Source: a virus. Taken from it: a stretch of DNA of 64,000 bases. A program made the position numbers and the translations under genes. Below, one piece after another: positions 25,415 to 58,651 of this stretch (its first letter is position 1; the number at the start of each line of letters is the position of its first letter). The notes beneath the pieces are model-generated. The model did no database searches. It was not told the DNA's origin and saw only the letters and a program-made list of their open reading frames with translations. The DNA lies in the IMG/VR virus record IMGVR_UViG_3300024264_001700, positions 1 through 64,000 of that record. One strand, written 5' to 3'.

Positions 25415-26701
25415 ATGGCTTTACGTCTAAGACGAGGAACAGATTCAGAAAGATTATTAATTACACCAGCAGAAGGTGAATTAATATATGCAACAGATAC
25501 AAAACTACTTTTTGTAGGTGACGGTGTTACAGTAGGTGGTAACGCAGTAGATACTAACACACAAGTTAGTTTAGAAGCAGCATTAGGCGAATTAAGCATT
25601 GATAGCTTCGGAGATGTTAATTCAGATAGTACAATTCCAAATGATGGAGATGTATTAGCATATGATGCTAGTTCAGGAGACTGGAGAGCAAGTTCAACCG
25701 CGGGTGGCGCAGCAACACTAGGCGAATTAACTGATGCAGATACAACAGGTGTTTTAAACGATGATGTTCTTGTGTATAATAGCGCAACTTCAGCATTTGA
25801 AAGAGAAACCTTCCGATTAGAAACATTACGTGATGTTAATTTTACTAACTTAACTAACTCTGTATTAGTATATGATAATGTAGCAGGTACATTTAATCAA
25901 GTAGATTCATTAAACAATAATATTGTAGATGCAAACGGTATTACGATATTAGATGCAAACTTAGCCGAATTTAATGGCGCTTTGCGTGGTGATATTCTTT
26001 CTGAAGATAGTAGTGTTATACTTTCAGTAGGTATCGGTGATACAGATAGCACTTTATTTGCAAATGTAACAGGCAATGTAACTGGGGACACAAACGGTAC
26101 ACACACAGGTGTAGTAATTGGTAATGTTACTGGTAACGTTGTAGGTGATGTAACAGGAAATGTAACTGGAGACGTTAGTGGTAATGTTGTAGGCGGAGCA
26201 AGTTCATCAGTTACGACTGAATCTGTTGTAACTGATTTTATTTCTGCTCCTGATAATTCATTACAATTTACTGGCACAGGTGATATCAATAGACTAGTTT
26301 TTAACAGAACAGAGGCAGGCGCACTTGCAGATGACTCGCCGATAGGCCGTTTAACTTTTGCTAAAACAGACTCAACTGGACCAACAACTACAACTATTAG
26401 TACATTAGATGTTACAAATGATCACCTGATATATTTCCCACAGCCGGGAGGTTCAGGTAATTCTAGTAATTATTTTAAATTACATTCTAATGGTAAAATG
26501 CAAATTAGTGTTCCTGGAGCAATTGGTACAGTACCAACAGCAGGTTTAGAAGTTGGTGGATCAATTAAACCAGGGGTCTATGCAGATGCTAGTGCAAGAG
26601 ATACAGCTATTACTGCTCCGACAGCCGGAGAAATGGTTTTTGTAACTGATGTTGCAAAGTTCCAAGGGTATGACGGATCTAGTTGGGTTAATTTAAACTA
26701 A
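25415..26701 (+). CDS. virion fibre/structural protein
   Basis: MALRLRRGT...EGELIYATDTKLLFVGDG N-terminal module, GDVLAYD...W repeats, G[ND]V[TV] repeats, C-terminal GEMVF...FQGYDGSSWVNL. Confidence 0.75.
   Translation: MALRLRRGTDSERLLITPAEGELIYATDTKLLFVGDGVTVGGNAVDTNTQVSLEAALGELSIDSFGDVNSDSTIPNDGDVLAYDASSGDWRASSTAGGAATLGELTDADTTGVLNDDVLVYNSATSAFERETFRLETLRDVNFTNLTNSVLVYDNVAGTFNQVDSLNNNIVDANGITILDANLAEFNGALRGDILSEDSSVILSVGIGDTDSTLFANVTGNVTGDTNGTHTGVVIGNVTGNVVGDVTGNVTGDVSGNVVGGASSSVTTESVVTDFISAPDNSLQFTGTGDINRLVFNRTEAGALADDSPIGRLTFAKTDSTGPTTTTISTLDVTNDHLIYFPQPGGSGNSSNYFKLHSNGKMQISVPGAIGTVPTAGLEVGGSIKPGVYADASARDTAITAPTAGEMVFVTDVAKFQGYDGSSWVNLN
26060..26195 (+). repeat. coding tetrapeptide repeat G-[N/D]-V-[T/V/S]
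   Basis: ANVTGNVTGDTNGTHTGVVIGNVTGNVVGDVTGNVTGDVSGNVVG; degenerate 12-nt period. Confidence 0.8.
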
Positions 26702-27408
26702 ACACCTAAAACACTTATTAATTTTATTACATTATCCCAAGTTTTTGGAATATTCATTATTAGATGAATACTTCCATTTGCCCAAGCATGTGTTCTATGC
26801 ACTTTAGTTGTGTCAATATAAATTACATTTCCAGGAGTAATCGGCAATCTTCTTCCGTTTTGTTCCCATTCAAATGCTTCGTCATCTGTATTATCAAAGA
26901 ATGCACATATTCTAAAACAATCTCTAGTTAAATATTGATGATCTCTATGTGGTGGAAAATATGCTCCTGCGTCTGCTCTAACTAAAAATGTTCTTCCTAA
27001 AGGTGAGAAATAATCGCAAAGATCATGAATGCTAGTAAGGTCCTTGTATAACTGTGTAGGATAATTAAAATCAGCTTCCATTACTTTATGTCCTACACGC
27101 TTTCTAGCTTCAGGCAAACTTAAACTATCATTACAGTCATCACCTTCTAATCCCCAAAGCATCAATCCATATCTAGGATCAGATTCACCTTCTCTAGGAA
27201 GATAATCAACCCATTTGTCGTTATATGGTTCTATCTCACTATTAAATTTGTCTATATCTAAATTAAAGTTCAACTTAGCATAATCACCTAACATTGCTAG
27301 TTGCTGTTCGCAATGCATTTGTTCGTCAGTAGGAACAAACATTTTAGAATCGTTTTCGTGCCCACCTATAAAATTGTGCCTAATATATTTTTTAAATCTA
27401 TCTTCCAT
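26698..27408 (-). CDS. Fe(II)/2OG oxygenase, Asp/Asn beta-hydroxylase-like
   Basis: FPPHRD (HxD) ... YIDTTKVHRTH. Confidence 0.7.
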   Translation of the reverse strand: MEDRFKKYIRHNFIGGHENDSKMFVPTDEQMHCEQQLAMLGDYAKLNFNLDIDKFNSEIEPYNDKWVDYLPREGESDPRYGLMLWGLEGDDCNDSLSLPEARKRVGHKVMEADFNYPTQLYKDLTSIHDLCDYFSPLGRTFLVRADAGAYFPPHRDHQYLTRDCFRICAFFDNTDDEAFEWEQNGRRLPITPGNVIYIDTTKVHRTHAWANGSIHLIMNIPKTWDNVIKLISVLGV

Positions 27409-28299
27409 TTATTTCTCCAGTAAAGGCGGATTAAGAGTATATCTGCTAAAAGACGTAGAATATCCTTCCATAGTATTATTATAAGTTTCATCCTTTTTCA
27501 TCAAATGAAATGTTATTGCTATTTTCCAATCGCATCCTTTTTTTCTAAAATCTGTCGGTGCGTGTAATACACTTGTATCTTGTACAATACCACTACACAA
27601 TTTCCAGGGCAACACTTCTTCTATACTTAATCCTTCGTATATGCTCATAGGTATGTGTTCAGGCATTTCACGTTCCATCCATGCCCAGTCTAGTTTATCG
27701 TATTCTATACCTTCGACTCCGTACTGCTCATATGGTAATAATCTAAAGGTATTACTGTAGCCGCTAAAATTAGAAATATGTCTATTTTTCATAAAATGTG
27801 TAGCTCTTCCGCGATAACGTTGATTAAAAGTTACATAATCTATTGATACATTATTATGTATTTCTAATGGTAAAATAATGTCTTTGTAAGGACGATAGCC
27901 AGGAATATGTGTAACACTGTCTGTATGTAACCCATAAGGTCTAATACTTTTAAACATCTGATCACCGACACTCATAGGATCATTTGAAACTTCGCTGTAA
28001 AATACAGTGTCTTCTCCAAAGTGTTCATATACTTTAGACCGTAAAATATCATTTATTACGCTGTAGCGTATAGGGTGCGGAATGTTTACAATATGTCCAT
28101 TTATTTCCCAGCCAACATTGTTGTACTCTTTATACCAAAAGTCAAGCAACTGTATACGTTCTTGTTCTGTAATAAAGTTATCTATGCTGTAACTAGGCTC
28201 GTATTGATCTTTAAAGAACTTAGTGTTAGGATCATGTATAATGTCCATGTTCTTTAGTGTTTCGTCATCAAATGGTTTATTTGCTTTCATATTTTTCAT
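27409..28299 (-). CDS. Fe(II)/2OG oxygenase-like protein
   Basis: GLHTDS (HxD) ... DTSVLHAP; paralog of 34527-35225. Confidence 0.6.
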   Translation of the reverse strand: MKNMKANKPFDDETLKNMDIIHDPNTKFFKDQYEPSYSIDNFITEQERIQLLDFWYKEYNNVGWEINGHIVNIPHPIRYSVINDILRSKVYEHFGEDTVFYSEVSNDPMSVGDQMFKSIRPYGLHTDSVTHIPGYRPYKDIILPLEIHNNVSIDYVTFNQRYRGRATHFMKNRHISNFSGYSNTFRLLPYEQYGVEGIEYDKLDWAWMEREMPEHIPMSIYEGLSIEEVLPWKLCSGIVQDTSVLHAPTDFRKKGCDWKIAITFHLMKKDETYNNTMEGYSTSFSRYTLNPPLLEK

Positions 28300-28759
28300 T
28301 TATAAACCTCCATTGTGTGTCTCCAAATTCATAAAAACTAATACTTATTGCAACTCGTGTATCTGTTATATTATGTACTGCATGATTCTTAAATGTATTT
28401 AACAAGTACCACTCGTTCTCCTGTTGCGTATAGTTACTCTCAAGTACTTTATCACTGCTGTAAACGCTTGTATGAGCGTCTAAACCACCTTTATTAAGTA
28501 TGTAGTTAATAGCAAACTCACGCCTATCCATATGTATAAGTCCGTTTAATTGCGGATCAATAAACTGTGCAATTATATGAGTTTTTTTAGGAAAAAAGTC
28601 TTTTGGAAATATACTCCTTATTTGCTTATCAACTTCATTGGTTACATAATAAGCAATATATCCTCCGACCTTTGCTTTCAGTTGTACATCATTTGTATGC
28701 CAGTTTTCTGGTAAGTCTAATTTAGGTAAATTTAATTTCTTATACGTAACTGTGTTCAT
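28277..28759 (-). CDS. small Fe(II)/2OG oxygenase-like protein
   Basis: IHMDR ... WYLLNTFKNHAVHN...RVAISI. Confidence 0.65.
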   Translation of the reverse strand: MNTVTYKKLNLPKLDLPENWHTNDVQLKAKVGGYIAYYVTNEVDKQIRSIFPKDFFPKKTHIIAQFIDPQLNGLIHMDRREFAINYILNKGGLDAHTSVYSSDKVLESNYTQQENEWYLLNTFKNHAVHNITDTRVAISISFYEFGDTQWRFINEKYESK

Positions 28760-29546
28760 AATCAAATGCGATCCTATGTAATACCCTTGTCTTCATATCT
28801 GCAAATGTCCATCGTTTGTGTATGCTTAACCATTGTTCGCTAATAACAAGATCGCCATCTTCCCAATCGTGATGCATTATATATTTCTCTTGCAAAATAT
28901 GATTTTTAATATAGTTGTATAGTTCAGGCCATTCCTCATTAGTAGCGCCTTCAACTATATCGAATATTTGTAAAAAAGGAAAGTATAGTCCTGTAAGATT
29001 TTCAATATTTGTTCTGACAATTTTTTGTGGATTATTATAAACCACATTATTTTGGAATATTTCACTTGGACTAAAATTACCTACCTTATGTCCGCAAGCG
29101 ACAGTTATACCATTTACTGTTTGTTTTACATCTTCTGGTAGGTCATTATAGGCAAGAACTTGGTTAATCCAGCTAGTTCTACTACCTTTAGATCCTCTTT
29201 CGCTATATAACCAAACAAACGGCCATCTATTTTCTTCTGTAGGATGATGCGTATGCCAATCTAACTCTATTTCGTGCCCAAATAATCCTGGCTCTCCTCT
29301 ATCATTTAATTCTCCAGTTACTCTTAGCACACCTGGTACGAGACTTAGATTATCTTTTGCTGTAGTGCTTTCGCCTTTATTTGCTTTTACATTACCCATT
29401 ACACTAGCAATTCTAAGTTCATCTTCTGGTGTAAGGTTTTGGTTTCTAAATATAACCACTAAATGTTTGTTAATATCTCTTGCAACTTGCTTTAGTTCTT
29501 CGTCAGACATTGTTTTAATATCTACATCATATTCTTTATGCCACAT
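28740..29546 (-). CDS. TauD/TfdA-family dioxygenase
   Basis: VVIFRNQNLT, DWHTHH, TSWIN..LAYNDLP, HDWEDGDLVI...HKR...RVLHR. Confidence 0.85.
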   Translation of the reverse strand: MWHKEYDVDIKTMSDEELKQVARDINKHLVVIFRNQNLTPEDELRIASVMGNVKANKGESTTAKDNLSLVPGVLRVTGELNDRGEPGLFGHEIELDWHTHHPTEENRWPFVWLYSERGSKGSRTSWINQVLAYNDLPEDVKQTVNGITVACGHKVGNFSPSEIFQNNVVYNNPQKIVRTNIENLTGLYFPFLQIFDIVEGATNEEWPELYNYIKNHILQEKYIMHHDWEDGDLVISEQWLSIHKRWTFADMKTRVLHRIAFDYEHSYV

Positions 29547-30066
29547 TTATACATCCCACTAAATTTACTCTATGTTCTTTACTAGCATTTGCTGCACTGT
29601 GCATTTTTGTTGTTTCAGTAACATAACCATAGCCGTCATCTGGAATATTATATAAAACACTTTCTTCTATGTAGTAACAATATTCATTTGTAATAATTCC
29701 TAATTGACATCTATCTGTCCAGTCTTTATGAGTATTATACACAAATAGAGGTGCTATTCGTAATATTCTTGTTCTTGTTAAATTATTTTCAATTATAAAT
29801 TTTGACATTTCCCATTCTGGCGGAATTAATAACTGCTTAAAAGATTCATTTTGTTTAGTCCATTCCTCTACATCGTTATCGTCCCAGTGTCGAATATAGA
29901 ATTTGTCAATATCATAATGTAAATGGTAATCTTCAGTGCCGTCAGTCTGCAAAGTAATTGCATCAAAATGATCTGGTAAGCCTGGCGTCCAGCCTACTTT
30001 TTCTACAAGTTCGGCATATTCAGATTTAATTTTTTTTATATCGTATTGTTTATCTAACCTATACAT
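29536..30066 (-). CDS. small Fe(II)/2OG oxygenase-like protein
   Basis: YNTHKD ... TTKMHSAANASKEHRVNLV. Confidence 0.7.
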   Translation of the reverse strand: MYRLDKQYDIKKIKSEYAELVEKVGWTPGLPDHFDAITLQTDGTEDYHLHYDIDKFYIRHWDDNDVEEWTKQNESFKQLLIPPEWEMSKFIIENNLTRTRILRIAPLFVYNTHKDWTDRCQLGIITNEYCYYIEESVLYNIPDDGYGYVTETTKMHSAANASKEHRVNLVGCINVA

Positions 30067-30568
30067 TTAATTCTCCGAATTTTATATCATGTATTCCCAT
30101 ATGAAATACTATACGTTCTTGTGAAGGTGCTTCTACTCCGTGTGGTAATTTTGTGTTAAGTACTGTAAGTGTATCATATACAATACTTTCTTTTGTGCCT
30201 TCCTCTACATATAATGCACCTGTATTTTTTGTTACAGGAATAAGAAAACTACATTCACTTTTAACATCCACATGTATAGGAAGATTGCCTCCTTCTAAAA
30301 CTCTAAAGAAGTTACATCTAAAATCTCGAGGTCGAATACCAAACTCGTTCCAAAGGCTTTTGATTAATTTTAGTAAAGGTCTATCAAAATTATGTATTTC
30401 TTGTACAAAGAACTTATTCATTTCTTTACCACCTGTTGCATCACTTACATATTCTGAATATAGTTTATTACTATCAGTCCATTCACTTGTCATATAGGTC
30501 TGCCAAAAAGTTGGATTAACTGTAAAATCAGTAGTAATAAAACTATTTTTTACTTTGTTCTTAAACAT
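30059..30568 (-). CDS. small Fe(II)/2OG oxygenase-like protein
   Basis: LPIHVD ... LNTKLPHGVE...RIVF. Confidence 0.7.
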   Translation of the reverse strand: MFKNKVKNSFITTDFTVNPTFWQTYMTSEWTDSNKLYSEYVSDATGGKEMNKFFVQEIHNFDRPLLKLIKSLWNEFGIRPRDFRCNFFRVLEGGNLPIHVDVKSECSFLIPVTKNTGALYVEEGTKESIVYDTLTVLNTKLPHGVEAPSQERIVFHMGIHDIKFGELNV

Positions 30569-31250
30569 ATAAATCTTCTTGTGTAAGGCAGCTAATAATC
30601 AAATGCCAACGTTCAGTGTTGCCATTGTTCCAGGCACTGTGTTTAAACCCTTGATTTAGAAACCAACATTCGCCAATATCCATAAAACACTCTTCACTAT
30701 TACCTTGCTTGTCTGTATTTTTAAATCCGCAATCGCTGTTAGTTTTTAGTGGAATATGATATCTCACAGCATAATCTGTATTGTAGTCTATGTGAGGCTT
30801 GATCGAGCCGCCGGGATGCATAATAGCAATTCTGCATCTAGATTTTTCAGCTATAAAAGTGTTAAGCACTGACTCAAGATATGTTCCGCTAAGTTGTGGC
30901 TTGAGTTTGTTATAGTGTCTTTCATCTGGCCTACTTCCGATTTTCTTAGTGTAATCTATATCAACAGAATCTTTATTAAATTCAGTAACTCCGACTTGTT
31001 TATAGTGGCCTTTTGTCATACCAGATATGTACTCTGTATATTGTCCGATACTAAATGCACGTTCGAGTGTAGGTGCTTTACTACCTACTACGTCACCGTA
31101 TCCTCCTTTAATTGTCAAATCGTCAAAAAATACAGATTTACCATCTACAGTTGTATCTTCTAATAATTCAAAGTCTTGAAGTATTTTTTTTGTGTCAAAA
31201 GTATAGGTCAGTTTTTTAAATAGTGGAAGTTCTTCTCTACGCTGTCTCAT
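30561..31250 (-). CDS. Asp/Asn beta-hydroxylase-like Fe(II)/2OG oxygenase
   Basis: RIAIMHPGGSIKPHID, RYHIPLKTN, FLNQGFKHSAWNNGNTERWHLI; start refined. Confidence 0.82.
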   Translation of the reverse strand: MRQRREELPLFKKLTYTFDTKKILQDFELLEDTTVDGKSVFFDDLTIKGGYGDVVGSKAPTLERAFSIGQYTEYISGMTKGHYKQVGVTEFNKDSVDIDYTKKIGSRPDERHYNKLKPQLSGTYLESVLNTFIAEKSRCRIAIMHPGGSIKPHIDYNTDYAVRYHIPLKTNSDCGFKNTDKQGNSEECFMDIGECWFLNQGFKHSAWNNGNTERWHLIISCLTQEDLYV

Positions 31251-31780
31251 AATTTGGTACTCGCTTTGTATTGCCAACAACTCGGCGCTTCTGGTATGCA
31301 CACACATTGTTTATCATCATGTAAATGCCATTGTGTGTTTGTTTTTTCTTGTATACTAGTAATTAGCTTGCGAAAGTATCTTGGACTCCTTTCTCGGCTT
31401 ATAAATGCACTAGCAAATCCTTGTGCTTTACACATAGCCATTTGATGTTCAATCATTAATATAGTATGCTTTAATCCTAAGTGTTTCCGAGAATCTGCAT
31501 GCCTATATTTAGGATTTTTATAATACTTAGACATTATGCGTATTTCACCAGGTTCATAATATTTAGATCTGTGCCATGCTACACTAAATTCTGCTATATC
31601 TTCTTTTACTTTGAAGATACTTATAACTTGAAAATCATTCCAATCTAAATTTTGATAATTTTTACTTAACGGATCAGTTGAACTGAAATTAATTTTAGAA
31701 AGATCGTTAATAAGATCTAACCTTTCGTTAGGAGAAAATGATATTAATGATGAATCTGGATATGGAGCAGATACTATCAT
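31247..31780 (-). CDS. hypothetical protein, possible GNAT fold
   Basis: RIMSKYYKNPKYR and AQGFASAFISRE resemble GNAT motifs A/B; weak. Confidence 0.45.
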   Translation of the reverse strand: MIVSAPYPDSSLISFSPNERLDLINDLSKINFSSTDPLSKNYQNLDWNDFQVISIFKVKEDIAEFSVAWHRSKYYEPGEIRIMSKYYKNPKYRHADSRKHLGLKHTILMIEHQMAMCKAQGFASAFISRERSPRYFRKLITSIQEKTNTQWHLHDDKQCVCIPEAPSCWQYKASTKL

Positions 31781-32464
31781 TTAGAATTGATACCCGTATT
31801 TTTCTAAGTCGTCTTTGAACATATTTTGTATAATATTTCTTGTGTTAGTATTATAATATTTTTTATATGTATCCCTAGTTGAGCTATTAGAATGCGACAT
31901 GCTTATTGATGTGTTAAATAGTTCTTCTAATAATTTAATTTTATTTTTAAGTTCTTCTATTTTTATTACAATATCAATACTATCTTCAATCCAATAATTT
32001 GTTGTCCTGGGTGTGCTATACCAGTTGTTAAATATTTCTGGGTTACGTACATTAGTGTAAGAATTATAAGGACTACTCGATTCGTTACTATAATCAATTA
32101 GCCAATTTTCAAATCCTAAGTCATAGTAATTAGCCATTGCTATATCATCATTATAGATAGAATTTTGTGTTCCGTCGGGGTTAGTTGGAGTATGTCCTCT
32201 TTTCCATATGCTTACTCTGTTTTTTGCATTTTGTCCCATATAATGAAATAAACTTACCATTCTATCATATGGATTTCTTACAAATGTAAAAGTTGTGCCT
32301 AAGGTTTTCCAAAGTTGTGTTGCTTCACTAAATGTACAATGCTTATATTTCTTAGGTGCATCAAAGACCAAACCAGTTGATTCTGCCCAGTACAGTAAGC
32401 TTGTGCCGCCTGTTCTAGGAATATGGATAAAAGTTACTTTAGGATCAAGAAAGTGTATTGACAT
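31781..32464 (-). CDS. sulfotransferase (carbohydrate sulfotransferase family 2-like)
   Basis: FIHIPRTGGTS (5'-PSB), FVRNPYDRMVS (3'-PB), DDLEKYGY. Confidence 0.88.
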   Translation of the reverse strand: MSIHFLDPKVTFIHIPRTGGTSLLYWAESTGLVFDAPKKYKHCTFSEATQLWKTLGTTFTFVRNPYDRMVSLFHYMGQNAKNRVSIWKRGHTPTNPDGTQNSIYNDDIAMANYYDLGFENWLIDYSNESSSPYNSYTNVRNPEIFNNWYSTPRTTNYWIEDSIDIVIKIEELKNKIKLLEELFNTSISMSHSNSSTRDTYKKYYNTNTRNIIQNMFKDDLEKYGYQF

Positions 32465-34525: not shown

Positions 34526-34526
34526 A

Positions 34527-36337: not shown

Positions 36338-36343
36338 ATCTTT

Positions 36344-36382
36344 ATATTAGCACCATTTTAGCATTCTGTCAAGATATTTATA
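36344..36382 (-). promoter_or_regulatory. overlapping sigma70-type and late-type promoters for the oxygenase block
   Basis: minus strand TTGACA(36372-36367)-17 bp-TAATAT with TG; perfect TATAAATA at 36382-36375. Confidence 0.6.
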
Positions 36383-36385
36383 AAA

Positions 36386-36393
36386 GATAAATA
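36386..36393 (+). promoter_or_regulatory. late-type promoter motif
   Basis: GATAAATA upstream of the GGAGG RBS of the nitroreductase. Confidence 0.45.
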
Positions 36394-36413
36394 CATTATA
36401 GGGGAGGACTGAG

Positions 36414-40598: not shown

Positions 40599-40605
40599 AT
40601 GAATT

Positions 40606-43924: not shown

Positions 43925-43943
43925 TAAAATATTTATAACACCA

Positions 43944-48656: not shown

Positions 48657-48661
48657 ACTTT

Positions 48662-48690
48662 ATTATACTTTATTTTTTATTGTTTGTCAA
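48662..48690 (-). promoter_or_regulatory. sigma70-type promoter inside the island
   Basis: minus strand TTGACA(48690-48685)-17 bp-TATAAT(48667-48662). Confidence 0.75.
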
Positions 48691-51240: not shown

Positions 51241-52492
51241 TATATTGCTCCAATATATTGTGAAACTCTGGAAATGTATCTTGAAAACTTGTGTTTCGAA
51301 TCTTATCAAGACCTTGAATATAATCTAGGTATTGCGGATATAACTCCGACAAGTCTTCTTGATACATAAAATCTATTTGATGAGAAATCTTTTCATTCCA
51401 TTGTTTGTTGTCGGGCAATTTTAAGCTAGCCCATTTGTCTTTTATTTTATCTTTTATTTCTTTAGGAAACATTTGCGTACAAAGATATCTCGGCCAATGT
51501 ACTGTTCCTGCATGGAATAATCCATTATGGTGTCTTATACCTATTTTTTTAAAGTTTTGTTCAAGTAACGATGTAGCAAAGTCTGGAATATAAAATATAT
51601 TCATTGCATGTACTGTGCAAAGTATTTTTACTTCAATATTATCAGGTGTATTATCTAATGTATTTAGATTTTCTTGTATAACATTCCAGTCAGCCGGATA
51701 TCTCACATAATCATGATGCTTGCCCCAGGCATCCATACTAATCATTAGTTCTACATATCCAAACTCTTTCCAAAGTTCTAATACTTCTTCTGGCAATACT
51801 GTACCGTTTGTATGATATCTTAGATTAATATGCTTACTATGTCCTGTCTCTACAAGTTTTCGTAGCATTCTATGATGTTCTTTTATAAGCAGAGGTTCGC
51901 CACCGGCAAAAATCATATGACGTATGTTTGCAAACATAGGCTCAAAGTCTTGCCATAGTTTTTCTTTTTTGTACCATTCGAACTTTGTAGTATCAATTTC
52001 TAGTTTGTGCTTCCAATCCCACTTTGCATCTGACTTTAATTCTTCTGCTAGTTTTTTAGCAGGATTTAACCACATACTGCTGTCTTGAGGCCTACACATC
52101 ACACATTGTAGATTACAAGTATTGCCTAATCTAAAGTCTAGTGTTACTAAATCTTCTTCGAGTGTGCCGTCTTCTTGTGTAGCTTCAACTAAACTGTTGA
52201 TTTTATCCTCGCCTAGTTCTCGTTTCCATAATGTATTTTCATTAATACGATGACTGCGGATGCCTGCTGATTCTTCTTTATAGCAGTGTTCGCATGCCAT
52301 GACTTTTTGTCCAGACAACATCTTTTTTCGAGCATCTTTCCAATGTTCGCTGTTCCATATTTCACTTACTGTTTGATCGTTTAAGTTATGCTTATAACTG
52401 TTCTTAGCAACACAGCATAGTAAGGCACTGCCGTCAGTCCATGTAGCCATGTGTGTCCAAGGTAAAACGCAAAATGTTTTCGATTCAGTCAT
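51233..52492 (-). CDS. N-terminal twitch-domain radical SAM enzyme (type A)
   Basis: FCVLPWTH...LCC...WNS...CEHCY; GNTCNLQCVMC, AGGEP. Confidence 0.93.
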   Translation of the reverse strand: MTESKTFCVLPWTHMATWTDGSALLCCVAKNSYKHNLNDQTVSEIWNSEHWKDARKKMLSGQKVMACEHCYKEESAGIRSHRINENTLWKRELGEDKINSLVEATQEDGTLEEDLVTLDFRLGNTCNLQCVMCRPQDSSMWLNPAKKLAEELKSDAKWDWKHKLEIDTTKFEWYKKEKLWQDFEPMFANIRHMIFAGGEPLLIKEHHRMLRKLVETGHSKHINLRYHTNGTVLPEEVLELWKEFGYVELMISMDAWGKHHDYVRYPADWNVIQENLNTLDNTPDNIEVKILCTVHAMNIFYIPDFATSLLEQNFKKIGIRHHNGLFHAGTVHWPRYLCTQMFPKEIKDKIKDKWASLKLPDNKQWNEKISHQIDFMYQEDLSELYPQYLDYIQGLDKIRNTSFQDTFPEFHNILEQYNG

Positions 52493-53606
52493 TTAAATTC
52501 CATATCTCTTTAAAAGAAGGTACCATTTCTAAAAAGTTTAAGTTTCGTTCTTTATCTAGACTACTAATATTTTCTTTTACTAGCTGCCAGCTATCTATTT
52601 GATCCTCACTTAATCTTTCGATCGTAACTTTGTAGGGATTATCAATTATAGCATAGTTATAGTCTAAATTCAACCGATTAAATTTTTCTATAAGATTATG
52701 TTTGGTACTACTAGGCAACGAACTTAGTTGTTGCCAATGCGGCCATCTAATCCAATCCCATTCTACCTTCCACAAAGGCAAATTATTGTGTATGTAATCT
52801 ACCAATTTATCTAGTTCTAATACATTAACTAAATTTACTACAGTGTGAATAATAAAATGCACGTTACTTTTATGTTGCCACCATTCTTCAAATGTTTTAA
52901 TTATCGAAATACAATCATCAAATTTAGAAGGCCATCTATACCAATCGTTTGCAGTATATATACCGTCCATGCTTACACACAAATATACATTATTACATTG
53001 TTCGATTAAATCTTTTAGTTCTTGATCAGGTAATATAGTTCCGTTAGTACAAATTTGTAAATTTACTTTAGTTAAATCTAAACTACGTAACAGTTTCTTA
53101 AATTTAGCACCTTCCATAAAAGGCTCGCCGCCTATAATCTTTAGATCAGTTACATCTAATAAATCCCACTTTTCAAAATCAAAGTCATTTTTTAAAAATC
53201 CCTTTGTTTCTACTCTATTTGCTTTTTTATCTTCAGCTTGCCATTTACTACTAAAAAATCCACTACAATGCGCACATGCTAAGTTACATAGATTGCTAAA
53301 ACTTACTTCTAATTGTTGTACTGGCACAGTTTTATTTTCAGTAGGTGTAAATTTTGAAAGACTATGCTGTCTCATACTGCGTAGGCCGTTGCGCTCATCT
53401 TGATAGCACCCGTGACAACCTTCTACAGATTCTCCAGATAGCATTTTATCTCTAATGTCTTTCCAATGCGCTGTATTACGCACACGATCATTCCAAACAT
53501 AGCTATCTTCTTCGTCAATGTGAGGATATCTACAGCAAGGTATTGTTAAGCCGTTTGGCCTAATAGCCGCTGCAAAAAAAGGATATGAACAAATAGTCTT
53601 ATTCAA
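52485..53606 (-). CDS. N-terminal twitch-domain radical SAM enzyme (type A)
   Basis: ICSYPF...IPCC...CHGCY; SNLCNLACAHC, IGGEP. Confidence 0.93.
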   Translation of the reverse strand: MNKTICSYPFFAAAIRPNGLTIPCCRYPHIDEEDSYVWNDRVRNTAHWKDIRDKMLSGESVEGCHGCYQDERNGLRSMRQHSLSKFTPTENKTVPVQQLEVSFSNLCNLACAHCSGFFSSKWQAEDKKANRVETKGFLKNDFDFEKWDLLDVTDLKIIGGEPFMEGAKFKKLLRSLDLTKVNLQICTNGTILPDQELKDLIEQCNNVYLCVSMDGIYTANDWYRWPSKFDDCISIIKTFEEWWQHKSNVHFIIHTVVNLVNVLELDKLVDYIHNNLPLWKVEWDWIRWPHWQQLSSLPSSTKHNLIEKFNRLNLDYNYAIIDNPYKVTIERLSEDQIDSWQLVKENISSLDKERNLNFLEMVPSFKEIWNLND

Positions 53607-54888
53607 CGCCTAGTTCCTTTGCAAGTTCAGGAATAGCATCTTTAAAACTTTCGTTTCTAGTCTTGTCTAGCATACGAGTATAATTTAAAAAGTTTTTCAT
53701 TAGTGTTTCATGATCTTGATGCTGTTCTTTGCGCATTAGATTAATGATGCCCTGAATTGTAGTTTTAATTCTCGGTTCATTTAATAGCTTACCTTGATAC
53801 GACTCTAAATTAAGTGCAGCCTTTTCTCTAATATGCTGCGGTAGTATTGTTACATCTAAGTAAAACGGATGATCGTTTATCAAATAGTCAATGCCAATTG
53901 GCCTGTCGTATTTTTCACTAATAGAATCTACATAATATAGCATATTATGACAATCTAAAACATTATAAGTTTGTACAACTGGTGAAACGTCTAAATTAAC
54001 ATTTTTTAGTTGTGCAATCTTTTGAAAGTTTTCATCAATTTTTTTCCACTTGCTAGGCGAGCGTATATAATCATTTACTTTTTCGTATCCATCTAGGCTA
54101 CAATTAATTTTTATGTTAGAAAACTTACTAATTAGACTTAAAAATTTATCAGTTACGTTTGTGCAGTTAATGTTAAAGAATATTTCAATCTTATCTTGAT
54201 ATCCTGCTGCAACTATTTCTTCCATAAATCTATAATTGTTGTTTATAAGAGTAGGCTCGCCGCCGGTCATATAAACTTTACTTAAATTTGGAATAAGACC
54301 TATAATCTCATTCCATAAAAAGTTACTATCAAAATTTAAGTCGCTGTCTTTTAAGAAAGTAGGATTTGGTCCCCAGTTATTATTCCAAAATTCTTTGTAT
54401 TCTTCACTTTTTTCGTATGAGCTAAAGTGTTCTTTAGCAATTTGACTGCTATTAAACGGATTACACATACGACATTTAAGATTACACAAGTTTCCTAGTC
54501 TAAGATCTAAATATACAGGTGGTAATTTTACTTCGTAGTTATTTTCTTTTGCACTATTAATAAAGTTGTGCAGTTCGGGTCCTAGTCTATTACGCCACTC
54601 AGCAGTCATTCTAGTTCTAAAGCTATCTAAGCCTATACTTTCTTGTTTGTAACAATGCTTACACGCTTCTACTTGAACACCGTTGAGCATATCTTTTCTA
54701 GCATTTTTAAAAACTTCACTGTTCCATGCATCTTCTACACTGTTTTTGCCAACCATCATAGGAGATCCATCTGCATTACGTGCAAAGGCTGTTGGGCCGC
54801 TTGCAATACAGCAATAACGCATTTTACCATCAGTGTTTAACATAGTACTAATAAATGGCATAGCACAAAAGGTTTTTGATTTTCTCAT
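53599..54888 (-). CDS. N-terminal twitch-domain radical SAM enzyme (type A)
   Basis: FCAMPF...RYCC...WNS...CKHCY; GNLCNLKCRMC, TGGEPT. Confidence 0.93.
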   Translation of the reverse strand: MRKSKTFCAMPFISTMLNTDGKMRYCCIASGPTAFARNADGSPMMVGKNSVEDAWNSEVFKNARKDMLNGVQVEACKHCYKQESIGLDSFRTRMTAEWRNRLGPELHNFINSAKENNYEVKLPPVYLDLRLGNLCNLKCRMCNPFNSSQIAKEHFSSYEKSEEYKEFWNNNWGPNPTFLKDSDLNFDSNFLWNEIIGLIPNLSKVYMTGGEPTLINNNYRFMEEIVAAGYQDKIEIFFNINCTNVTDKFLSLISKFSNIKINCSLDGYEKVNDYIRSPSKWKKIDENFQKIAQLKNVNLDVSPVVQTYNVLDCHNMLYYVDSISEKYDRPIGIDYLINDHPFYLDVTILPQHIREKAALNLESYQGKLLNEPRIKTTIQGIINLMRKEQHQDHETLMKNFLNYTRMLDKTRNESFKDAIPELAKELGVE

Positions 54889-55805
54889 TACTTTTCGATA
54901 TCTATAAGTTTTCTAGAATTTCTAGATGGATTTTGGTAAACTGATTTAAAGAATTTACTTTGTTGTGCATTCAACGGCTGTTCTGCAATAGGAATGTTTA
55001 GTTCATTAATTAATTTAATTCCATATTCTTCTATTTCATAATCAACATCTTCAATTGATTCGAAAGACACTTTCCATAAATCATTTAAGTATTCAAAATC
55101 TCTCACATTTATAAAATCCCAATCTGTACACATTGTCATATGCAATCCTGCACGGGCGCCGAGAATTGCCCATTCACCATGTTCTGCATCAGCACCTATC
55201 ATTAACCAAATATATAAACGTTGTAAATTTTTCCAATGTCCTTTTACTAAATCATATTTGCTAGTACGCACACCTTCGTCCAGCGTCATCTTAACACCTT
55301 CACGGAAACCTGCACGCCATGCTTGCTGCGGTGTTGCATTATTATGCACAGTTGAAAAACAACTATTTTGTTGAATATAATTTAAATCCCAACAAAAGTC
55401 TACTTGTGCATGTGGATTATCGTCTGGCGCATTTTCATGCGTTTTCATATTAAGAACATAATCTTTAGGCCAACATTTTATGCCGCCGTTGCCGTACATT
55501 AACCCGTTAATTATATTTTTGCCGCACCAACTTATTACACTATTTTCTAAATTAGATAATTGATCAAACGGTATTTCTTGATTTATAAACGAACCATCTA
55601 TTTTATTATCGGCGTCTACTGTAATAAAACGTTCTGTTTCACTTAGTTTTGCACATGCTTTATGCGCTGCATCTGATCCTTCTACCCCGTGTACACGTTT
55701 AGCCCAAGGAACTTTACTACACAAATCTGCATAGTTTTTTTCTGCATTTGGTTCATCATATGACAAATAAATAATATCACAGTCTGCTACTCTAAAGTTA
55801 TTCAT
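54888..55805 (-). CDS. GT-A glycosyltransferase-like protein
   Basis: RVHGVEG, ITVDAD (DxD), YGNGGIKCW, AWRAGFRE; start refined. Confidence 0.65.
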   Translation of the reverse strand: MNNFRVADCDIIYLSYDEPNAEKNYADLCSKVPWAKRVHGVEGSDAAHKACAKLSETERFITVDADNKIDGSFINQEIPFDQLSNLENSVISWCGKNIINGLMYGNGGIKCWPKDYVLNMKTHENAPDDNPHAQVDFCWDLNYIQQNSCFSTVHNNATPQQAWRAGFREGVKMTLDEGVRTSKYDLVKGHWKNLQRLYIWLMIGADAEHGEWAILGARAGLHMTMCTDWDFINVRDFEYLNDLWKVSFESIEDVDYEIEEYGIKLINELNIPIAEQPLNAQQSKFFKSVYQNPSRNSRKLIDIEK

Positions 55806-56634
55806 TTTGTGCCTTTCTATTACAATCATATGCAACTGTTGTATATATACTTAATTGTTCTAGGTCAGATTCTTGATCAAATATGAAAGGAATTTTTGCA
55901 GTAATTTCTTCTCTTTTCTCTAAAATTAACCATATCAAATTGTCCTTTATGTATAAACCGCCTGTAGGTGTATCTTTCCTATTAGTAAATACACTATCAA
56001 TTACAACCTTATCTAAATCAATATCTAAATAATCATTAGTTAAACAATAAATTTTGTTATTGTGAAATACATGATCTCCAGGGTAGTATACTGAATCTTT
56101 TTTATTATCCTTTACTTTAATACCTTTGTATACATGTTCGTCTTTATAATCTTTAGAGGTTTGATAAAGGTCAAACTCTAAAAGTCTTATTAATTTACGA
56201 GGATCATGTCTTTTTGTTATACTACATTTGAAAAGTCTATGATTGCCTATATTCTTCGATATAACAGTATTATAAAACTCTGTGCCTATCGTAATTTTCC
56301 ATACTTTTGAGTCAACTATTTGTTCAATTGTAATATCACCGTGTTTTTTAAACAAAATTTCTTTAAAATTATTCCAGTTTAATAAATCTTCTGAAGCAGT
56401 TTTACTTATTAGTTGATACAATTTATCTTTTTTATTATACTGTACACAAAAATCATTTAGAGATTTTTCTTTTGATTTAATTTGTTTTTCTTCTAACTCA
56501 TTAATTTCTACTTTGGAAGTATTTTTATCATTATCGTCAGGTCCAACTTTCCATACATCGCCTGATTTAGTATCATAGTATGCAAAAGTTTTATTTGGAA
56601 CTTGTGTATTTTTTATAAGGTCAAGTAGATCCAT
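55798..56634 (-). CDS. hypothetical protein
   Basis: 278 aa, coupled within the operon; no motif recognised. Confidence 0.65.
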   Translation of the reverse strand: MDLLDLIKNTQVPNKTFAYYDTKSGDVWKVGPDDNDKNTSKVEINELEEKQIKSKEKSLNDFCVQYNKKDKLYQLISKTASEDLLNWNNFKEILFKKHGDITIEQIVDSKVWKITIGTEFYNTVISKNIGNHRLFKCSITKRHDPRKLIRLLEFDLYQTSKDYKDEHVYKGIKVKDNKKDSVYYPGDHVFHNNKIYCLTNDYLDIDLDKVVIDSVFTNRKDTPTGGLYIKDNLIWLILEKREEITAKIPFIFDQESDLEQLSIYTTVAYDCNRKAQNE

Positions 56635-57473
56635 TAATTTTCTCGCTTTGATTCATAAAGAGATATAAGTTTATCGTTACAAAAATCTTTTTCAGTATAA
56701 TGAAATATTCCAGTTTGTATATAATTTCCGACAATAAGTTCTACTTCATCATTTACAAAATAGTCAATTCTGTCTTGCCAGGTATCTGCTATCTTTTTCC
56801 AACCCTGTACATTATTTTTCATATGTGTAAATGTAGGTATACTTATTCTATCATTTGTTACTTGATCTTCGATATTAAGAATTTTAATAACCAACGATGC
56901 TGCTACATCTATACTTAAAAATTTAGGAGTATTCTTTGATATAAATTTAAAATAAAACGCTTCATAGTTATTACAAACTATTTCTAACATCTTATAAAAA
57001 TTCATTGCAGTATCACATTTTTTAAAATAATGAAATCCTACATATGTATTAGGTAAGTCATTTAATTGAAATGCCTTTCTATAATAACTATTTTGTATAC
57101 GATCACCTCTATATGTTTTTACATTTTTTACAAAATACAATTCATAATTATTTAAAATTTTCCACCACGAAGAAATGTCTTGTAATACAATCATATCAGT
57201 ATCCATTACAATAGTTTCGTCATATGGTGATGCATGATAAATCTTCCAACGATTTGAAACTTTCCATGTATCATTAACAGCTGAATCATTCCAGGGAATA
57301 TCAATTATTTTATCAAATATATTTTTATAGTTTTTATCTACAGGATCATTTGTAATTAAGCTTACTTTTGTATTAGGATTAGTATGTATTATACTTAACG
57401 CATTTAAATATGCTTGTTTGACATAGTCGGTTTCATCTGTATTCTGTGCCAACATTACTATGCCCTTAGTCAT
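56634..57473 (-). CDS. GT-A glycosyltransferase (GT8/mannosyltransferase-like)
   Basis: SPYDETIVMDTD (DxD), TFTHMK, FHY. Confidence 0.72.
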   Translation of the reverse strand: MTKGIVMLAQNTDETDYVKQAYLNALSIIHTNPNTKVSLITNDPVDKNYKNIFDKIIDIPWNDSAVNDTWKVSNRWKIYHASPYDETIVMDTDMIVLQDISSWWKILNNYELYFVKNVKTYRGDRIQNSYYRKAFQLNDLPNTYVGFHYFKKCDTAMNFYKMLEIVCNNYEAFYFKFISKNTPKFLSIDVAASLVIKILNIEDQVTNDRISIPTFTHMKNNVQGWKKIADTWQDRIDYFVNDEVELIVGNYIQTGIFHYTEKDFCNDKLISLYESKREN

Positions 57474-58308
57474 TTTCAAACTCCTTATTAATAGCCCTAC
57501 CTAAACTAAATTTATTCATAGCATGAATAGTTAAATCTTTTGTTTTAATAAGTGTATATTCTCCAGTATAATTTTCTTTTTGTATTAAAAATATAATCTC
57601 ATTATTATCTAATTTTATTACAACATCTCTATCTAAAATATGATATAGTCTACCAGATAACGGTGCTGCAAACGTTCCTTTTTGAAATCCATTCATTATG
57701 TGAATAGCAATACTAAAAACAAAATCGTTTCTAAACAGAGCTGGTACTTGATATGAAGATTTATAGTGCCACCAGTTATGTTCGATATGTTTAGCTAAAT
57801 TAAAAAATATGTCATTATTTTTAGTTTTCCTAAAGAAAAATATAGTTGCCCAGTAAAACTCAACACTAGCATCACTTATATGCTTAAACTCAGATTGATC
57901 TCTCCAGTCAGCTAAATCAAAAGAGTCTTTATATATCTGAAAATCTTGTAGGCTAGAAAAGGCTTCCTTTAATTTATCATTACATATTATTATGTCAGTA
58001 TCCATTACAATTGTTTCGTCATACGGACTTAACTCATATGACAAAGTTCGAGAATTATTGCGCCATGGAAGTCGATACTGAGATAAAGAACCGTCAAAAT
58101 AAGTTTTAATATTTGATTTTAAATTTTCTTCATTTAATTTAATAACATTATCAAAAACTTCAAAAGATTCTGCATAACCTACAGAATCTGTCACAACGGA
58201 TACTGGAAGATCTAAATAAGTTTTACACCTTTTGGCAACAAACGCTGCTTGCTTTACATAATCTACTTTTTCGTTATTATTTGCAAATAATAATATACCT
58301 TTAGTCAT
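57466..58308 (-). CDS. GT-A glycosyltransferase (paralog of 56634-57473)
   Basis: MTKGIL..A.N, SPYDETIVMDTD, FRNDFVFSIA, IHAMNK. Confidence 0.72.
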   Translation of the reverse strand: MTKGILLFANNNEKVDYVKQAAFVAKRCKTYLDLPVSVVTDSVGYAESFEVFDNVIKLNEENLKSNIKTYFDGSLSQYRLPWRNNSRTLSYELSPYDETIVMDTDIIICNDKLKEAFSSLQDFQIYKDSFDLADWRDQSEFKHISDASVEFYWATIFFFRKTKNNDIFFNLAKHIEHNWWHYKSSYQVPALFRNDFVFSIAIHIMNGFQKGTFAAPLSGRLYHILDRDVVIKLDNNEIIFLIQKENYTGEYTLIKTKDLTIHAMNKFSLGRAINKEFEND

Positions 58309-58651
58309 AATCTACTAATTTTTCTACTGATCTTTGAGATTTTAATTTGTTATACTCGGTTAGGTAAGTATTAGATGCAGAAAAGTATACATCGAGTATA
58401 TCAACTAAGAAAGAATTTATATTATCTACATTTACAGGTATATTATTATCATCTATTAAAACTGTATTGTCATTGTCGTTTTCATTTAATAAATTTACAA
58501 AATTTATTAATTCTTTAGTTACAGTAAACTGACATCCATTATAATAATACAACGTATTTTCTATAAATTGTTCATTTAAAATACGCTTTTGATTTGATAA
58601 TGTTACCATGTAATTAGAAAAGTTTAGTGCTTTTTCTAAACGCTCGTCCAT
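58301..58651 (-). CDS. hypothetical protein
   Basis: MDERLEKAL... after GGAG RBS; VLIDDNNIP. Confidence 0.7.
   Translation of the reverse strand: MDERLEKALNFSNYMVTLSNQKRILNEQFIENTLYYYNGCQFTVTKELINFVNLLNENDNDNTVLIDDNNIPVNVDNINSFLVDILDVYFSASNTYLTEYNKLKSQRSVEKLVDYD

Follow-up and report, generated by a model that had tools for sequence, protein, structure and literature searches.

The host recognition cluster of pelagimyophages combines tail fibre genes with GT8-rich glycosyltransferase genes and cassettes of radical S-adenosylmethionine (SAM) enzymes, and an Asp/Asn beta-hydroxylase is one of the core genes of these phages (PMC7029224). Twelve radical SAM genes have been noted, in an Fe-S context, in a marine T4-like genome (PMC5332604), and the "Moraphages" carry four core glycosyltransferase families (PMC12619734). 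The passages in which these three papers treat such genes assign a function in none of the cases; the pelagimyophage passage gives gene content only, which it reads as modification of the host O-chain. Here we analyse the first 64 kb (positions 1 to 64,000, referred to as the window) of the 85,585-bp linear viral record IMGVR_UViG_3300024264_001700 from IMG/VR, which contain a 38-gene island at 26698-58663 located directly behind fibre genes. The island is an example of the fibre-adjacent, glycan-type islands of large phages that are already known descriptively, with an enzyme load much larger than that of the pelagimyophages. The genes form a tailoring island that is real, coherent and conserved widely rather than a fortuitous assembly, and this copy is unusually enzyme-rich. 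An earlier note on the window, made from the sequence alone, had put it forward as an undescribed system, which is half right, since the pelagimyophage islands and the T4-like genome with 12 radical SAM genes are in print (PMC7029224, PMC5332604). As to function, we tentatively favour a soluble cytoplasmic pathway that would build and edit a glycan, with the virion fibre proteins as the favoured target.

The closest cultured relative of the island is a minimal version of it. Only four records in the phage collection match the radical SAM gene o30 and one matches the transferase gene o33 (island genes are numbered from o1, the last, to o37, the first in the order of transcription), a megablast search with 20 kb of the island gave no match in the same collection, and the phage is not close to cultured pelagiphages. 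Among the cultured phages of the collection, only the Ralstonia jumbo phage RsoM2USA (MG752970) has an o33 homolog, and its ORF355 to ORF347 (ORF, open reading frame) follow the order of the window: a fibre/o38-like gene, o37, two GT8 genes, a further gene, a GT-A fold transferase (44% identical to o33), a radical SAM enzyme with an N-terminal twitch domain (N-twitch), a second GT-A transferase and an o26-like gene. This module has one radical SAM gene and no oxygenase block, and its ORFs are annotated as hypothetical. It stands directly behind baseplate wedge genes, the gene of a 2541-aa virion protein assigned by mass spectrometry (ORF361), a sheath gene and the structural gene ORF356 (PMC8504454). 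None of ORF355 to ORF347 is among the 10 virion bands that were assigned by mass spectrometry (PMC8504454).

Virion glycosylation itself is established for mycobacteriophages (cited in PMC12619734). The mycobacteriophage systems consist of a few glycosyltransferases and methyltransferases, with no radical SAM or iron- and 2-oxoglutarate-dependent (Fe/2OG) enzymes, and virion modification has been demonstrated there, whereas the island is known from genes alone. Freeman et al. in 2023 reportedly found that mycobacteriophage glycosyltransferases encoded beside structural genes decorate virion proteins. For the radical SAM part of the island, the nearest functional precedent is provided by BtrN-type twitch enzymes, which act on sugars and cyclitols. 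Compared with aminoglycoside tailoring, however, seven of the 12 island radical SAM enzymes have the twitch domain at the N terminus, and cyclitol or aminosugar core genes are absent.

CheckV estimates the completeness of the record at 22%, and the source is therefore probably a jumbo phage. Its DNA polymerase shares 45 to 50% identity with the enzymes of the jumbo phages Phosso and Atu_ph07 and ∼42% with those of the 121Q group. Replication-type genes (carbamoyltransferase, DNA polymerase, exonuclease and ATPase) occupy the plus strand from 1 to 26.7 kb, and the minus strand carries all notable genes of the contig from 26698 onwards. They are arranged, in the direction of transcription, as an 898-aa gene, a giant 5248-aa gene, three paralogous fibre genes, o39, o38 and the island, which is thus downstream of the fibre genes and co-directional with them. 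The giant ORF (contig 67071-82817, −) lies beyond the window, precedes the fibre genes and corresponds in position to the 2541-aa virion protein ORF361 of RsoM2USA (PMC8504454).

The island (26698-58663) comprises 37 ORFs of at least 80 aa and one ORF of 74 aa. All but one of the 37 (36/37) are encoded on the minus strand, to which the coordinates given below refer unless marked otherwise; only o15 (36414-37028) is on the plus strand. Neighbouring ORFs overlap at 31 of the 37 junctions, and the single gap longer than 20 bp measures 76 bp (36338-36413). The ORF list thus bears out the earlier description of 37 tightly packed ORFs, all but one on the minus strand. The 74-aa ORF (45531-45755), which that description missed, is additional: it fills the sole apparent gap in the island, overlaps both of its neighbours (o24 and o23) by 4 nt, and recurs at 72 to 77% identity in six related loci (L002-L004, L057/58 and L096), where it follows an o26-like gene. 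The fibre-like flanks are likewise as the note had claimed (upstream, 58718-64000, on the basis of Peptidase_G2 and PHROG tail fibre matches; convergent, 25415-26701). Directly upstream of the island are the fibre-like paralogs o38 (58718-59914) and o39 (59980-60903; 6e-29 between the two), which are candidate acceptor proteins; their C-terminal part matches ORF355 of RsoM2USA, and the N terminus of ORF355 matches the fibres o40 and o42. The fibre genes o40 (60914-62428) and o41 (from 62477, extending to 64378 on the contig) are identified by paralogy, by a Peptidase_G2 intramolecular-chaperone domain (27.2 bits in the o40/o41 region) and by a PHROG tail fibre match (E 4e-19). At the opposite end, the repeat-rich fibre-like gene o45 (25415-26701, +), with an N-terminal fibre-type motif and GNVTG-type repeats, converges on o1; its PHROG matches are of unknown function only, and it is variable among close relatives (32 to 47% identity in L164/L165).

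Three conserved sub-modules make up the island. The first (58663-47144) comprises o37, a pair of GT8 genes, o34, the GT-A gene o33, five tandem N-twitch radical SAM genes, the GT-A gene o27 and o26. The second (45534-35225) runs through o23, o22, o21, the QueC-like o20, o19, o18, o17, o16, o15 (+) and o14, and the third (35225-26698) is an O2-dependent block from o13 through o1. To follow these parts across viruses, 79 viral loci were gathered with o30 and 17 further viral loci with o2. In very diverse phages, the order fibre, o38/o39, o37, GT8, GT8, variable gene, GT-A and N-twitch radical SAMs recurs, and downstream of the N-twitch genes there follow, again in recurring order, a further radical SAM or hydroxylase gene, a 455-aa gene of unknown function and o26.

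The association with fibre genes is carried by the glycosyltransferase part. At its head, o37 (58301-58663) encodes a 120-aa virus-only protein, a possible fibre partner or chaperone, whose family is present in 31 of the 79 viral loci, always with the GT8 pair; it falls into virus-only clusters of the Atlas (nearest Pfam lead, DUF4376 at 0.89) and is 34% identical to RsoM2USA ORF354. The GT8-like genes o36 (57466-58308) and o35 (56634-57479) are paralogs of each other (BLAST, 7e-13). As single sequences they have no Pfam match; their family profile (A2) matches glycogenin-1/2 in the PDB (E 2e-7 to 7e-5) over profile positions 3-105 of 273 only, with positions 4-104 spanned at E 2e-7. Of the 79 viral loci, 32 have the pair, and 31 of these 32 (22/23 after dereplication) have both the o38/o39 family and o37 as well; the sole GT8 locus without them is cut by its contig end. 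The linkage of the glycosyltransferase part to fibre genes is real, in these loci as in RsoM2USA, while the radical SAM part also occurs without fibre genes, and the connection to structural genes raised in the earlier note holds for the former part of the island.

Behind the GT8 pair, o34 (55798-56634) keeps a fixed place between the pair and the GT-A gene while its sequence varies (clusters c66, c19 and c38), and all proteins at this position share an N-terminal YY..G motif. The GT-A fold protein o33 (54888-55835) represents a new glycosyltransferase-like family with a DGD motif (D74 and D76 invariant), without a Pfam match and with chance-level PDB matches of its profile (A1) only. Its AlphaFold2 model (pLDDT 85.4) finds the PBCV-1 capsid glycosyltransferase A64R and ThuS/SunS as top Foldseek matches (E 4e-4; TM 0.27-0.39), so that protein- or peptide-glycosylating enzymes are among the best matches, and a Che8 glycosyltransferase is among the weak ones (rank 14, E 2e-3). 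VIA-align gives Z 10.3 to STIV A197 and Z 8-10.3 to many GT-A proteins; since nucleotidyltransferases of the same fold also reach Z 8-9, o33 is a putative glycosyltransferase. Its paralog o27 (47973-48656; BLAST 2.6e-33), the second GT-A gene, belongs to a family found in 42 of the 79 viral loci and is 41% identical to RsoM2USA ORF348. The fifth transferase proposed earlier, o24 (45752-46612), has no Pfam or PHROG match and is a lead only, as a possible GT10-like enzyme (Atlas Glyco_transf_10 clusters, 0.80-0.81), so that four of the five glycosyltransferase-like proteins are backed by a GT8 profile (o35, o36) or a GT-A fold (o27, o33).

Some related viral loci add a NodU-type carbamoyltransferase (21 loci), a UDP-glucose/GDP-mannose dehydrogenase (9 loci) or a GT7-lectin fusion. 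The window also encodes a NodU-type carbamoyltransferase (617-2113, +; PHROG E 1e-138), in the replication-side block distant from the island, whereas Bdellovibrionota and related phages have this gene inside the island; beside the window copy, no small conserved peptide could be made out. In four relatives (L170, L171, L174 and L175) the order o12, o10, o8, o7, o6, o3, ..., o2 is kept at 24 to 78% identity, beside radical SAM and o26-like genes, and in the closer relative L165, o4, o5, o6 and o9 are missing and one N-twitch gene is added.

In the mosaic relative L001, compared with window 49820-62464, o30 to o32 are 96 to 98% identical at the protein level, whereas o33 to o40 are 47 to 66% identical (o34, 29%), with the breakpoint near the o33/o32 border. 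Because o33 to o40 diverged while o30 to o32 remained near-identical, the transferases changed together with the fibre allele, and co-variation with the fibre allele is thus seen, in one genome pair. L003 is 94.9% identical over 15.3 kb, followed by a cassette swap (window 47143-45734 versus L003 15350-18984) in which o25, o24 and o23 are replaced by an o24-like gene, a UDP-glucose/GDP-mannose dehydrogenase and two other genes. Cassette swaps with near-identical flanks resemble surface-glycan (O-antigen-type) loci under diversifying selection, and strain-level swaps of this kind suggest a function in an arms race. An O-antigen- or capsule-type locus was considered and rejected, since the Pfam scan of the 37 island ORFs found no priming transferase, flippase, ABC or other transporter, or polymerase, and since hydrophobic segments were detected in one of the 47 proteins checked, o12 (the 47 include all island ORFs except the 74-aa one).

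The count of 12 radical SAM genes given earlier is confirmed by three lines of evidence. The CxxxCxxC motif is present in 12/12; nine reach the gathering cut-off of Pfam Radical_SAM (PF04055, 29.5 bits), and the three below it, o21 (22.4), o29 (21.4) and o31 (26.7), are paralogs of members above it (BLAST); and a six-frame search of the whole 85.6-kb record gave 12 PF04055 matches (E <= 0.01), all within the island, with no QueE among them. Five other large viral records have 4, 7, 8, 9 and 15 such matches. Seven of the genes (o18, o19 and o28 to o32) form the N-twitch set, whose members are old paralogs with 20 to 33% identity. The members fall within, or are paralogous to, NF033640 (NCBIfam N_Twi_rSAM, twitch domain-containing radical SAM; curated cut-off, 170 bits), which is matched end-to-end by o18 (39198-40622; 422.8 bits), o30 (51233-52492; 394.6 bits), o28 (48677-49903; 304.7 bits) and o31 (52485-53606; 229.5 bits), members that share an N-terminal Cys set followed by the CxxxCxxC core. 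The divergent o19 (40606-41904; Pfam Radical_SAM, 43.3 bits) scores 145.5 bits, under the NF033640 cut-off. The NCBIfam scan took in 10 of the 12 radical SAM genes; the two others, o29 (49900-51309) and o32 (53599-54888), were placed by paralogy (BLAST, E 1e-29 to 4e-59). The Cys pattern ahead of the core is C-x17-CC-x(about 40)-CxxC, in which C8, C26, C27, C67 and C70 (o30 numbering) are invariant across 16 sequences, and Pfam SPASM matches at residues 8-114, N-terminally, in five of the seven genes, with o28 just under the cut-off. This N-terminal domain with four to five Cys residues would hold a predicted auxiliary cluster. The N-twitch family counts at least 1498 sequence clusters (E <= 1e-10), is frequent in large phages and is catalogued without a known reaction, and a literature search turned up no paper on NF033640 itself.

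The remaining five radical SAM genes belong to two families. Family B consists of o22 (43944-45023; Pfam, 30.6 bits), with a C-terminal twitch/SPASM-like Cys set, its paralog o21 (42863-43981; BLAST 1.4e-35 to o22), with a C-terminal C..CC..CxxxC, and o16 (37029-37982; 44.5 bits), also a paralog of o21, with a C-terminal SPASM/twitch domain (SPASM, 22.4 bits at 216-267). The family B Cys set, C-x18-CC followed by a CxxxC pair, is similar in order and spacing to the N-terminal set of the N-twitch enzymes, which suggests that one auxiliary-cluster domain may be placed at either end of the protein and would agree with a shift of this domain between the two ends. Family C consists of o17 (37979-39208; 44.8 bits) and o14 (35225-36337; 52.7 bits), the latter heading the oxygenase block. 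Together with o18, o22 and o14 constitute a triad that reappears in bacteria (see below). With o14 and o22 as single queries, the PDB yielded no match at E <= 0.01, and the N-twitch profile (A5) matches SkfB, CteB, BlsE, MoaA and viperin over the generic radical SAM core only, so these matches do not discriminate the substrate.

SkfB and CteB are the nearest solved sequences, and most secondary NCBIfam matches of the radical SAM genes are to peptide maturases, which raises the question of whether the island might modify a fibre protein or a small precursor directly, without a glycan, in the manner of ribosomally synthesized and post-translationally modified peptides (RiPPs). The Asp/Arg beta-hydroxylases encoded in the island classically act on proteins. 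Clustering also revealed apparent fusions of an o14/o17-type radical SAM domain with an o10-type (Asp/Arg-hydroxylase-type) domain in L006 (694 aa), L020 (693 aa) and L033 (711 aa), and such fusions tie the two enzyme classes to one substrate. The maturase matches, however, are far under their cut-offs (20-55 versus 300-720 bits) and cover the shared core only. No precursor peptide, RiPP recognition element (RRE) or PqqD domain, protease or exporter was matched by Pfam in the 37 island ORFs, and the check for small ORFs found only the 74-aa ORF, which is not rich in Cys, Ser or Thr and has no leader or core character. Such a system would also leave the four glycosyltransferases and the sugar-nucleotide genes of sister loci unexplained, and we consider direct protein or peptide modification very unlikely. 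A RiPP maturation system proper was rejected since neither a precursor nor an RRE was found in the 37 ORFs and the small-ORF check, in which a very short or unconventional precursor might have been missed. The absence of a transporter and an obvious precursor, already remarked upon from the sequence, is in agreement with the Pfam scan.

Between the triad members lies o20 (41901-42866), a PP-loop ATP pyrophosphatase resembling QueC and asparagine synthase, with an SGGADS motif and a C-terminal CxxCxxC. Its QueC-like label stands in part: the PP-loop and the Cys motif are present and PHROG matches at E 9.5e-5, over residues 244-319 only, but there is no Pfam QueC match. A QueC-like enzyme, and the reported ability of phage glycosyltransferases to glycosylate DNA (bioRxiv 10.1101/2023.12.21.572611), would be in keeping with DNA hypermodification, in which the island enzymes decorate a modified base of the phage DNA. 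The island is located in the fibre module, not in the replication module, and among its ORFs Pfam detects neither a base-exchange enzyme nor a DNA-binding domain or nucleotide kinase. Because a QueC/Asn-synthase-like gene is an integral part of glycan-type clusters in Bdellovibrionota, o20 need not serve queuosine chemistry, and the comparison suggests that it may instead activate a carboxylate of the product. DNA modification was accordingly rejected, on account of the wrong module and of the cellular glycan-type clusters to which the QueC-like gene belongs, and its probability appears extremely small.

The O2-dependent block supplies most of the oxygenases. Eleven had been proposed, of which nine (o1, o2, o4 to o7, o10, o11 and o13) are backed beyond motifs and two, o3 (28277-28765; HMD...H; hhalign 2%) and o25 (46596-47141; HRD...H; hhalign 3.5% to the cupin hydroxylase profile), are oxygenase-like by motif only. 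The Asp/Arg beta-hydroxylase type is represented by the cupin o10 (32445-33020; Pfam Asp_Arg_Hydrox, PF05118, 54.2 bits) and o7 (30561-31307; PF05118, 58.4 bits) and, weakly, by o5 (29536-30066; 18.2 bits, below the Pfam cut-off of 22.6; hhalign 65%) and the cupin o6 (30059-30568; hhalign 38% to profile A6, with HxD and the distal His aligned). H113, D115 and H160 are invariant in profile A6, which represents the Asp/Arg hydroxylase cupins. Homologs of o10 are found in 34 viral loci, some fused to radical SAM, and o6 is 75 to 78% identical in L170-L175, where o3 is syntenic as well. The last gene of the island, o1 (26698-27408), is cupin oxygenase-like (BLAST to o10, 6e-8; Cupin_2 weak, 18 bits). 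Two genes belong to the TauD family by sequence, o11 (33004-33981; Pfam 108.2 bits) and o4 (28740-29546; 94.1 bits; cut-off 27 for both), with altered predicted metal sites: at the WHxD site o11 reads WHCN and o4 WHTH, so that the TauD/TfdA iron triad HxD/E...H is not kept (H-C-N in o11, H-T-H in o4), while the distal His and Arg are retained, and HMMER alignments of o11 to 5j92 and ScoE place Asn at the position of the iron-binding carboxylate.

The Fe/2OG dioxygenase-like o2 (27409-28299) belongs to a family without a Pfam model, in which H125 and D127 are invariant and H246 nearly so; o13 (34527-35225; HND...H) is its paralog (BLAST 1e-10). The AlphaFold2 fold of o2 (pLDDT 92.0, pTM 0.90) has KanJ as its top Foldseek match (E 3.3e-5), followed by the proline hydroxylase H11 and SnoN, though the TM-scores to KanJ, an aminoglycoside tailoring enzyme, are only 0.31-0.37 (TMq). 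In hhalign, o2, o13, o3 and o25 gave 0.2 to 3.5% probability against the cupin hydroxylase profile. KanJ-like and twitch radical SAM enzymes, together with glycosyltransferases, a kinase-like protein, a sulfotransferase and the carbamoyltransferase at 617-2113, make up a mix reminiscent of aminoglycoside tailoring, and the island might accordingly produce a diffusible pseudo-oligosaccharide or aminoglycoside-like natural product during infection. A cyanophage paper speaks, in the relevant passage, of "antibiotic synthesis" genes including a radical SAM maturase (PMC12801897). In the 37 island ORFs, however, Pfam finds no cyclitol synthase, aminotransferase, enzyme of nucleoside diphosphate sugar synthesis, exporter or resistance gene, and the fixed place behind fibre genes would be left unexplained; a small-molecule product seems improbable.

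Other enzymes of the island were named with varying success in the earlier note. The Sulfotransfer_2 sulfotransferase o9 (31781-32464; Pfam 34.5 bits, cut-off 22), the minimal membrane fatty-acyl desaturase-like o12 (33959-34537; FA_desaturase 30.4 bits, cut-off 29.7) and the nitroreductase-family flavoprotein o15 (36414-37028, +; Nitroreductase 35.9 bits, cut-off 23.5) all score above their cut-offs. With three hydrophobic segments and the His boxes HRYFSH, HRMHH and HKDHH, o12 is the only membrane protein of the island. The kinase label of the small protein o23 (45016-45534) is weak (PHROG kinase, E 1.1e-5; no Pfam match), and the Rossmann-like o26 (47144-48019), found in 37 of the 79 viral and in 7 bacterial loci, with GxWYG and acidic motifs (profile A3), was termed methyltransferase-like on similarly weak grounds: its profile has a chance-level PDB match only, and since just 1 of 20 family members matches Methyltransf_25, weakly, we do not call it a methyltransferase. 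The GNAT label of o8 (31247-31780) was not upheld, as o8 has no Pfam or PHROG match; it is syntenic in L170-L175 at 37 to 39% identity.

A cellular counterpart of the island exists in predatory bacteria. A genome-collection scan yielded the best 78 loci of at least 172 relatives; among the matches listed, Bdellovibrionota names are attached to at least 23 of the 78 loci and to 14 of the best 17. In L087-L093 (L090 is labelled only "bacterium"), orthologs of o22 (44-46.5% identity), o18 (58-62%) and o14 (60-66%) stand side by side, together with homologs of o17 (37-46%), o21, o26 and o27/o33, extra N-twitch paralogs, and genes for TauD-like, Asp/Arg-hydroxylase-like, B12-radical SAM, GT2 and carbamoyltransferase proteins. 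A full-length FA_desaturase is encoded within L087 and a QueC/Asn-synthase-like gene within L093. These clusters are cellular, because housekeeping genes (encoding a class II aminoacyl-tRNA synthetase, Lon protease and DnaG primase) flank them and their contigs reach 936 kb. In common with the island, they have the triad and the TauD-like, Asp/Arg-hydroxylase-like, desaturase and QueC/Asn-synthase-like genes, and they differ in having GT2 and B12-radical SAM genes instead of the GT8 pair, o37 and fibre genes, all three of which are absent from L087-L093; they are likewise uncharacterised. Bdellovibrionota use phage-fibre-like adhesins for prey recognition (PMC10769870).

The o18 tree places the window within a well-supported phage clade of five, and the seven Bdellovibrionota rows form one group (78/90); as the tree has a midpoint root only and no outgroup, the direction of transfer cannot be read from it. 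Two o18-like genes in the phage clade come from contigs binned with bacteria. L094 (PXYQ01000183.1, 2.9 kb; Flavobacteriaceae metagenome-assembled genome [MAG]) has island genes 78 to 89% identical to those of the window (o18, 89%), and L096 (NZGL01000008.1; "Gammaproteobacteria" MAG; GC 0.36) has island genes 59 to 84% identical (o18, 59%; o14, 84%), both in a phage-like order. Both contigs are probably phage sequence that ended up in the MAG bins.

Cellular clusters without fibre genes are also in keeping with a pathway that would remodel the host envelope, acting on the lipopolysaccharide (LPS) core, lipid A or a glycolipid at the inner membrane face, for example to exclude other phages or to prevent re-adsorption of progeny. 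The membrane desaturase-like o12 with its three His boxes and the full-length desaturase of L087 suit a lipid substrate, and the Asp/Arg-hydroxylase family, to which several island oxygenases belong, includes the lipid A hydroxylase LpxO. GT8 is the main transferase family of the LPS core, and the pelagimyophage paper reads its GT8 genes in this way (PMC7029224). Sigma-70-like promoter matches, detailed below, are present in the island. Conversely, every glycosyltransferase and radical SAM enzyme is predicted to be soluble, the Pfam scan found no lipid-carrier, flippase or ligase gene in the island, 31 of 32 loci with the GT8 pair also carry o37 and the fibre-like family, and the transferases co-vary with the fibre allele in L001. 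On this evidence, an envelope target is possible, albeit rather unlikely.

The reading as a soluble glycan pathway is suggested by the carbohydrate-type accessory genes, by the absence of precursor, RRE, transporter and flippase genes from the Pfam scan, and by the predicted solubility of all products checked except o12. The carbohydrate context is provided by the GT8 pair, the GT-A pair, the carbohydrate-type sulfotransferase o9 and the weak fold match of o2 to KanJ, and in related loci by UDP-sugar dehydrogenase, carbamoyltransferase, GT7 and GT2 genes. Virion fibre proteins are tentatively favoured as the target on account of the strict association of the GT8/o37 block with the fibre-like family, its constant place at the tail module's end in cultured as in uncultured phages, and the transferases that changed with the fibre allele in L001. 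The glycan would be built from host nucleotide sugars and edited in place; the gene families, their packing and synteny, their co-occurrence with fibre genes and the cellular counterpart are observed, and the acceptor, each single reaction and the order of the steps are what we infer from the gene content. The GT8 pair (o36 and o35) and the GT-A enzyme o33 would transfer host nucleotide sugars to an acceptor, for which the fibre-like o38/o39 family directly upstream is the best candidate, perhaps aided by o37. The five tandem N-twitch enzymes, o19 and o18 would each abstract a hydrogen from a particular C-H bond of a sugar, with epimerisation, oxidation, deoxygenation, decarboxylation or C-alkylation as possible outcomes. 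The GT-A enzyme o27, the Rossmann-like o26 and the possible GT10-like o24 might extend or cap the chain, and the triad o22-o18-o14, with the PP-loop protein o20 and the kinase-like o23, might make further changes, o20 possibly by ATP-dependent activation of a carboxylate, such as the conversion of a uronic acid to an amide. Finally, the O2-dependent block would hydroxylate and sulfate the product through the cupin hydroxylases, the TauD-like o4 and o11, the KanJ-like o2 and o13, and the sulfotransferase o9. The assembly-line reading of the earlier note agrees with this as far as the coherent carbohydrate-type island is concerned, whose blocks recur in order, but nothing places the product on virion proteins.

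Several observations weigh against this proposal. The radical SAM, GT-A and o26 part occurs in Bdellovibrionota chromosomes without GT8, o37 or fibre genes, and the GT8 pair is absent from 47 of the 79 viral loci, some of which are cut by contig ends. The desaturase-like o12 points to a lipid or envelope substrate, and the kinship of the hydroxylases with LpxO fits an envelope target. On the transferase side, o33 has weak structural matches (TM 0.27-0.39), glycogenin aligns with no more than the first third of the GT8 profile, and the methyltransferase, kinase and GT10 labels are weak; the authors of the pelagimyophage study read GT8 as LPS-core-type (PMC7029224).

Promoter-like sites add to these objections. 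Near-perfect or perfect TTGACA-N17/18-TATAAT matches of the sigma-70 type were found on the coding strand at 48690-48662, 58706-58678 and 45783-45754, just upstream of o27, o37 and the 74-aa ORF/o23, respectively, and similar sites were read by eye upstream of o38 (59979-59915) and o14 (36413-36338). If used, these sites would imply transcription by the host polymerase, possibly early, rather than the late expression typical of virion genes. The scan gave 127 sigma-70-like matches versus 108 ± 10 expected, which is no overall enrichment, and only the placement of the best three is noteworthy. The motif TATAAATA, which we take to be the T4-type late promoter, is depleted in the window (2 found versus 15.6 ± 4.2 expected; all 100 shuffles had at least 2). 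Its copies are at 36375-36382 and 43930-43937 (−), the former within the 76-bp gap upstream of o14 together with a TTGACA-N17-TAATAT site, and on the contig TATAAATA precedes neither the fibre genes nor the giant gene.

A more specific hypothesis concerns the N-twitch family, which may carry out a radical chemistry not yet described, with sugars already linked to phage fibre proteins as substrates. Its tandem paralogs would then edit different positions and, with the O2-dependent hydroxylases and the sulfotransferase, generate a strain-variable, hypermodified glycan coat on the apparatus of host recognition, while the same core would serve predatory Bdellovibrionota; taken as a whole, we regard this scenario as doubtful. 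Material for testing is at hand in the minimal module of the cultured phage RsoM2USA, the triad common with Bdellovibrionota, and the two TauD-like proteins with altered iron sites. Whatever the target, the island draws attention to a radical SAM family of at least 1498 clusters (E <= 1e-10) without an assigned reaction. If the product is located on virion fibres, it would be the most elaborate post-translational decoration of a phage particle known and the first to involve radical SAM enzymes, and it would bear on host range, evasion of defence and phage engineering.

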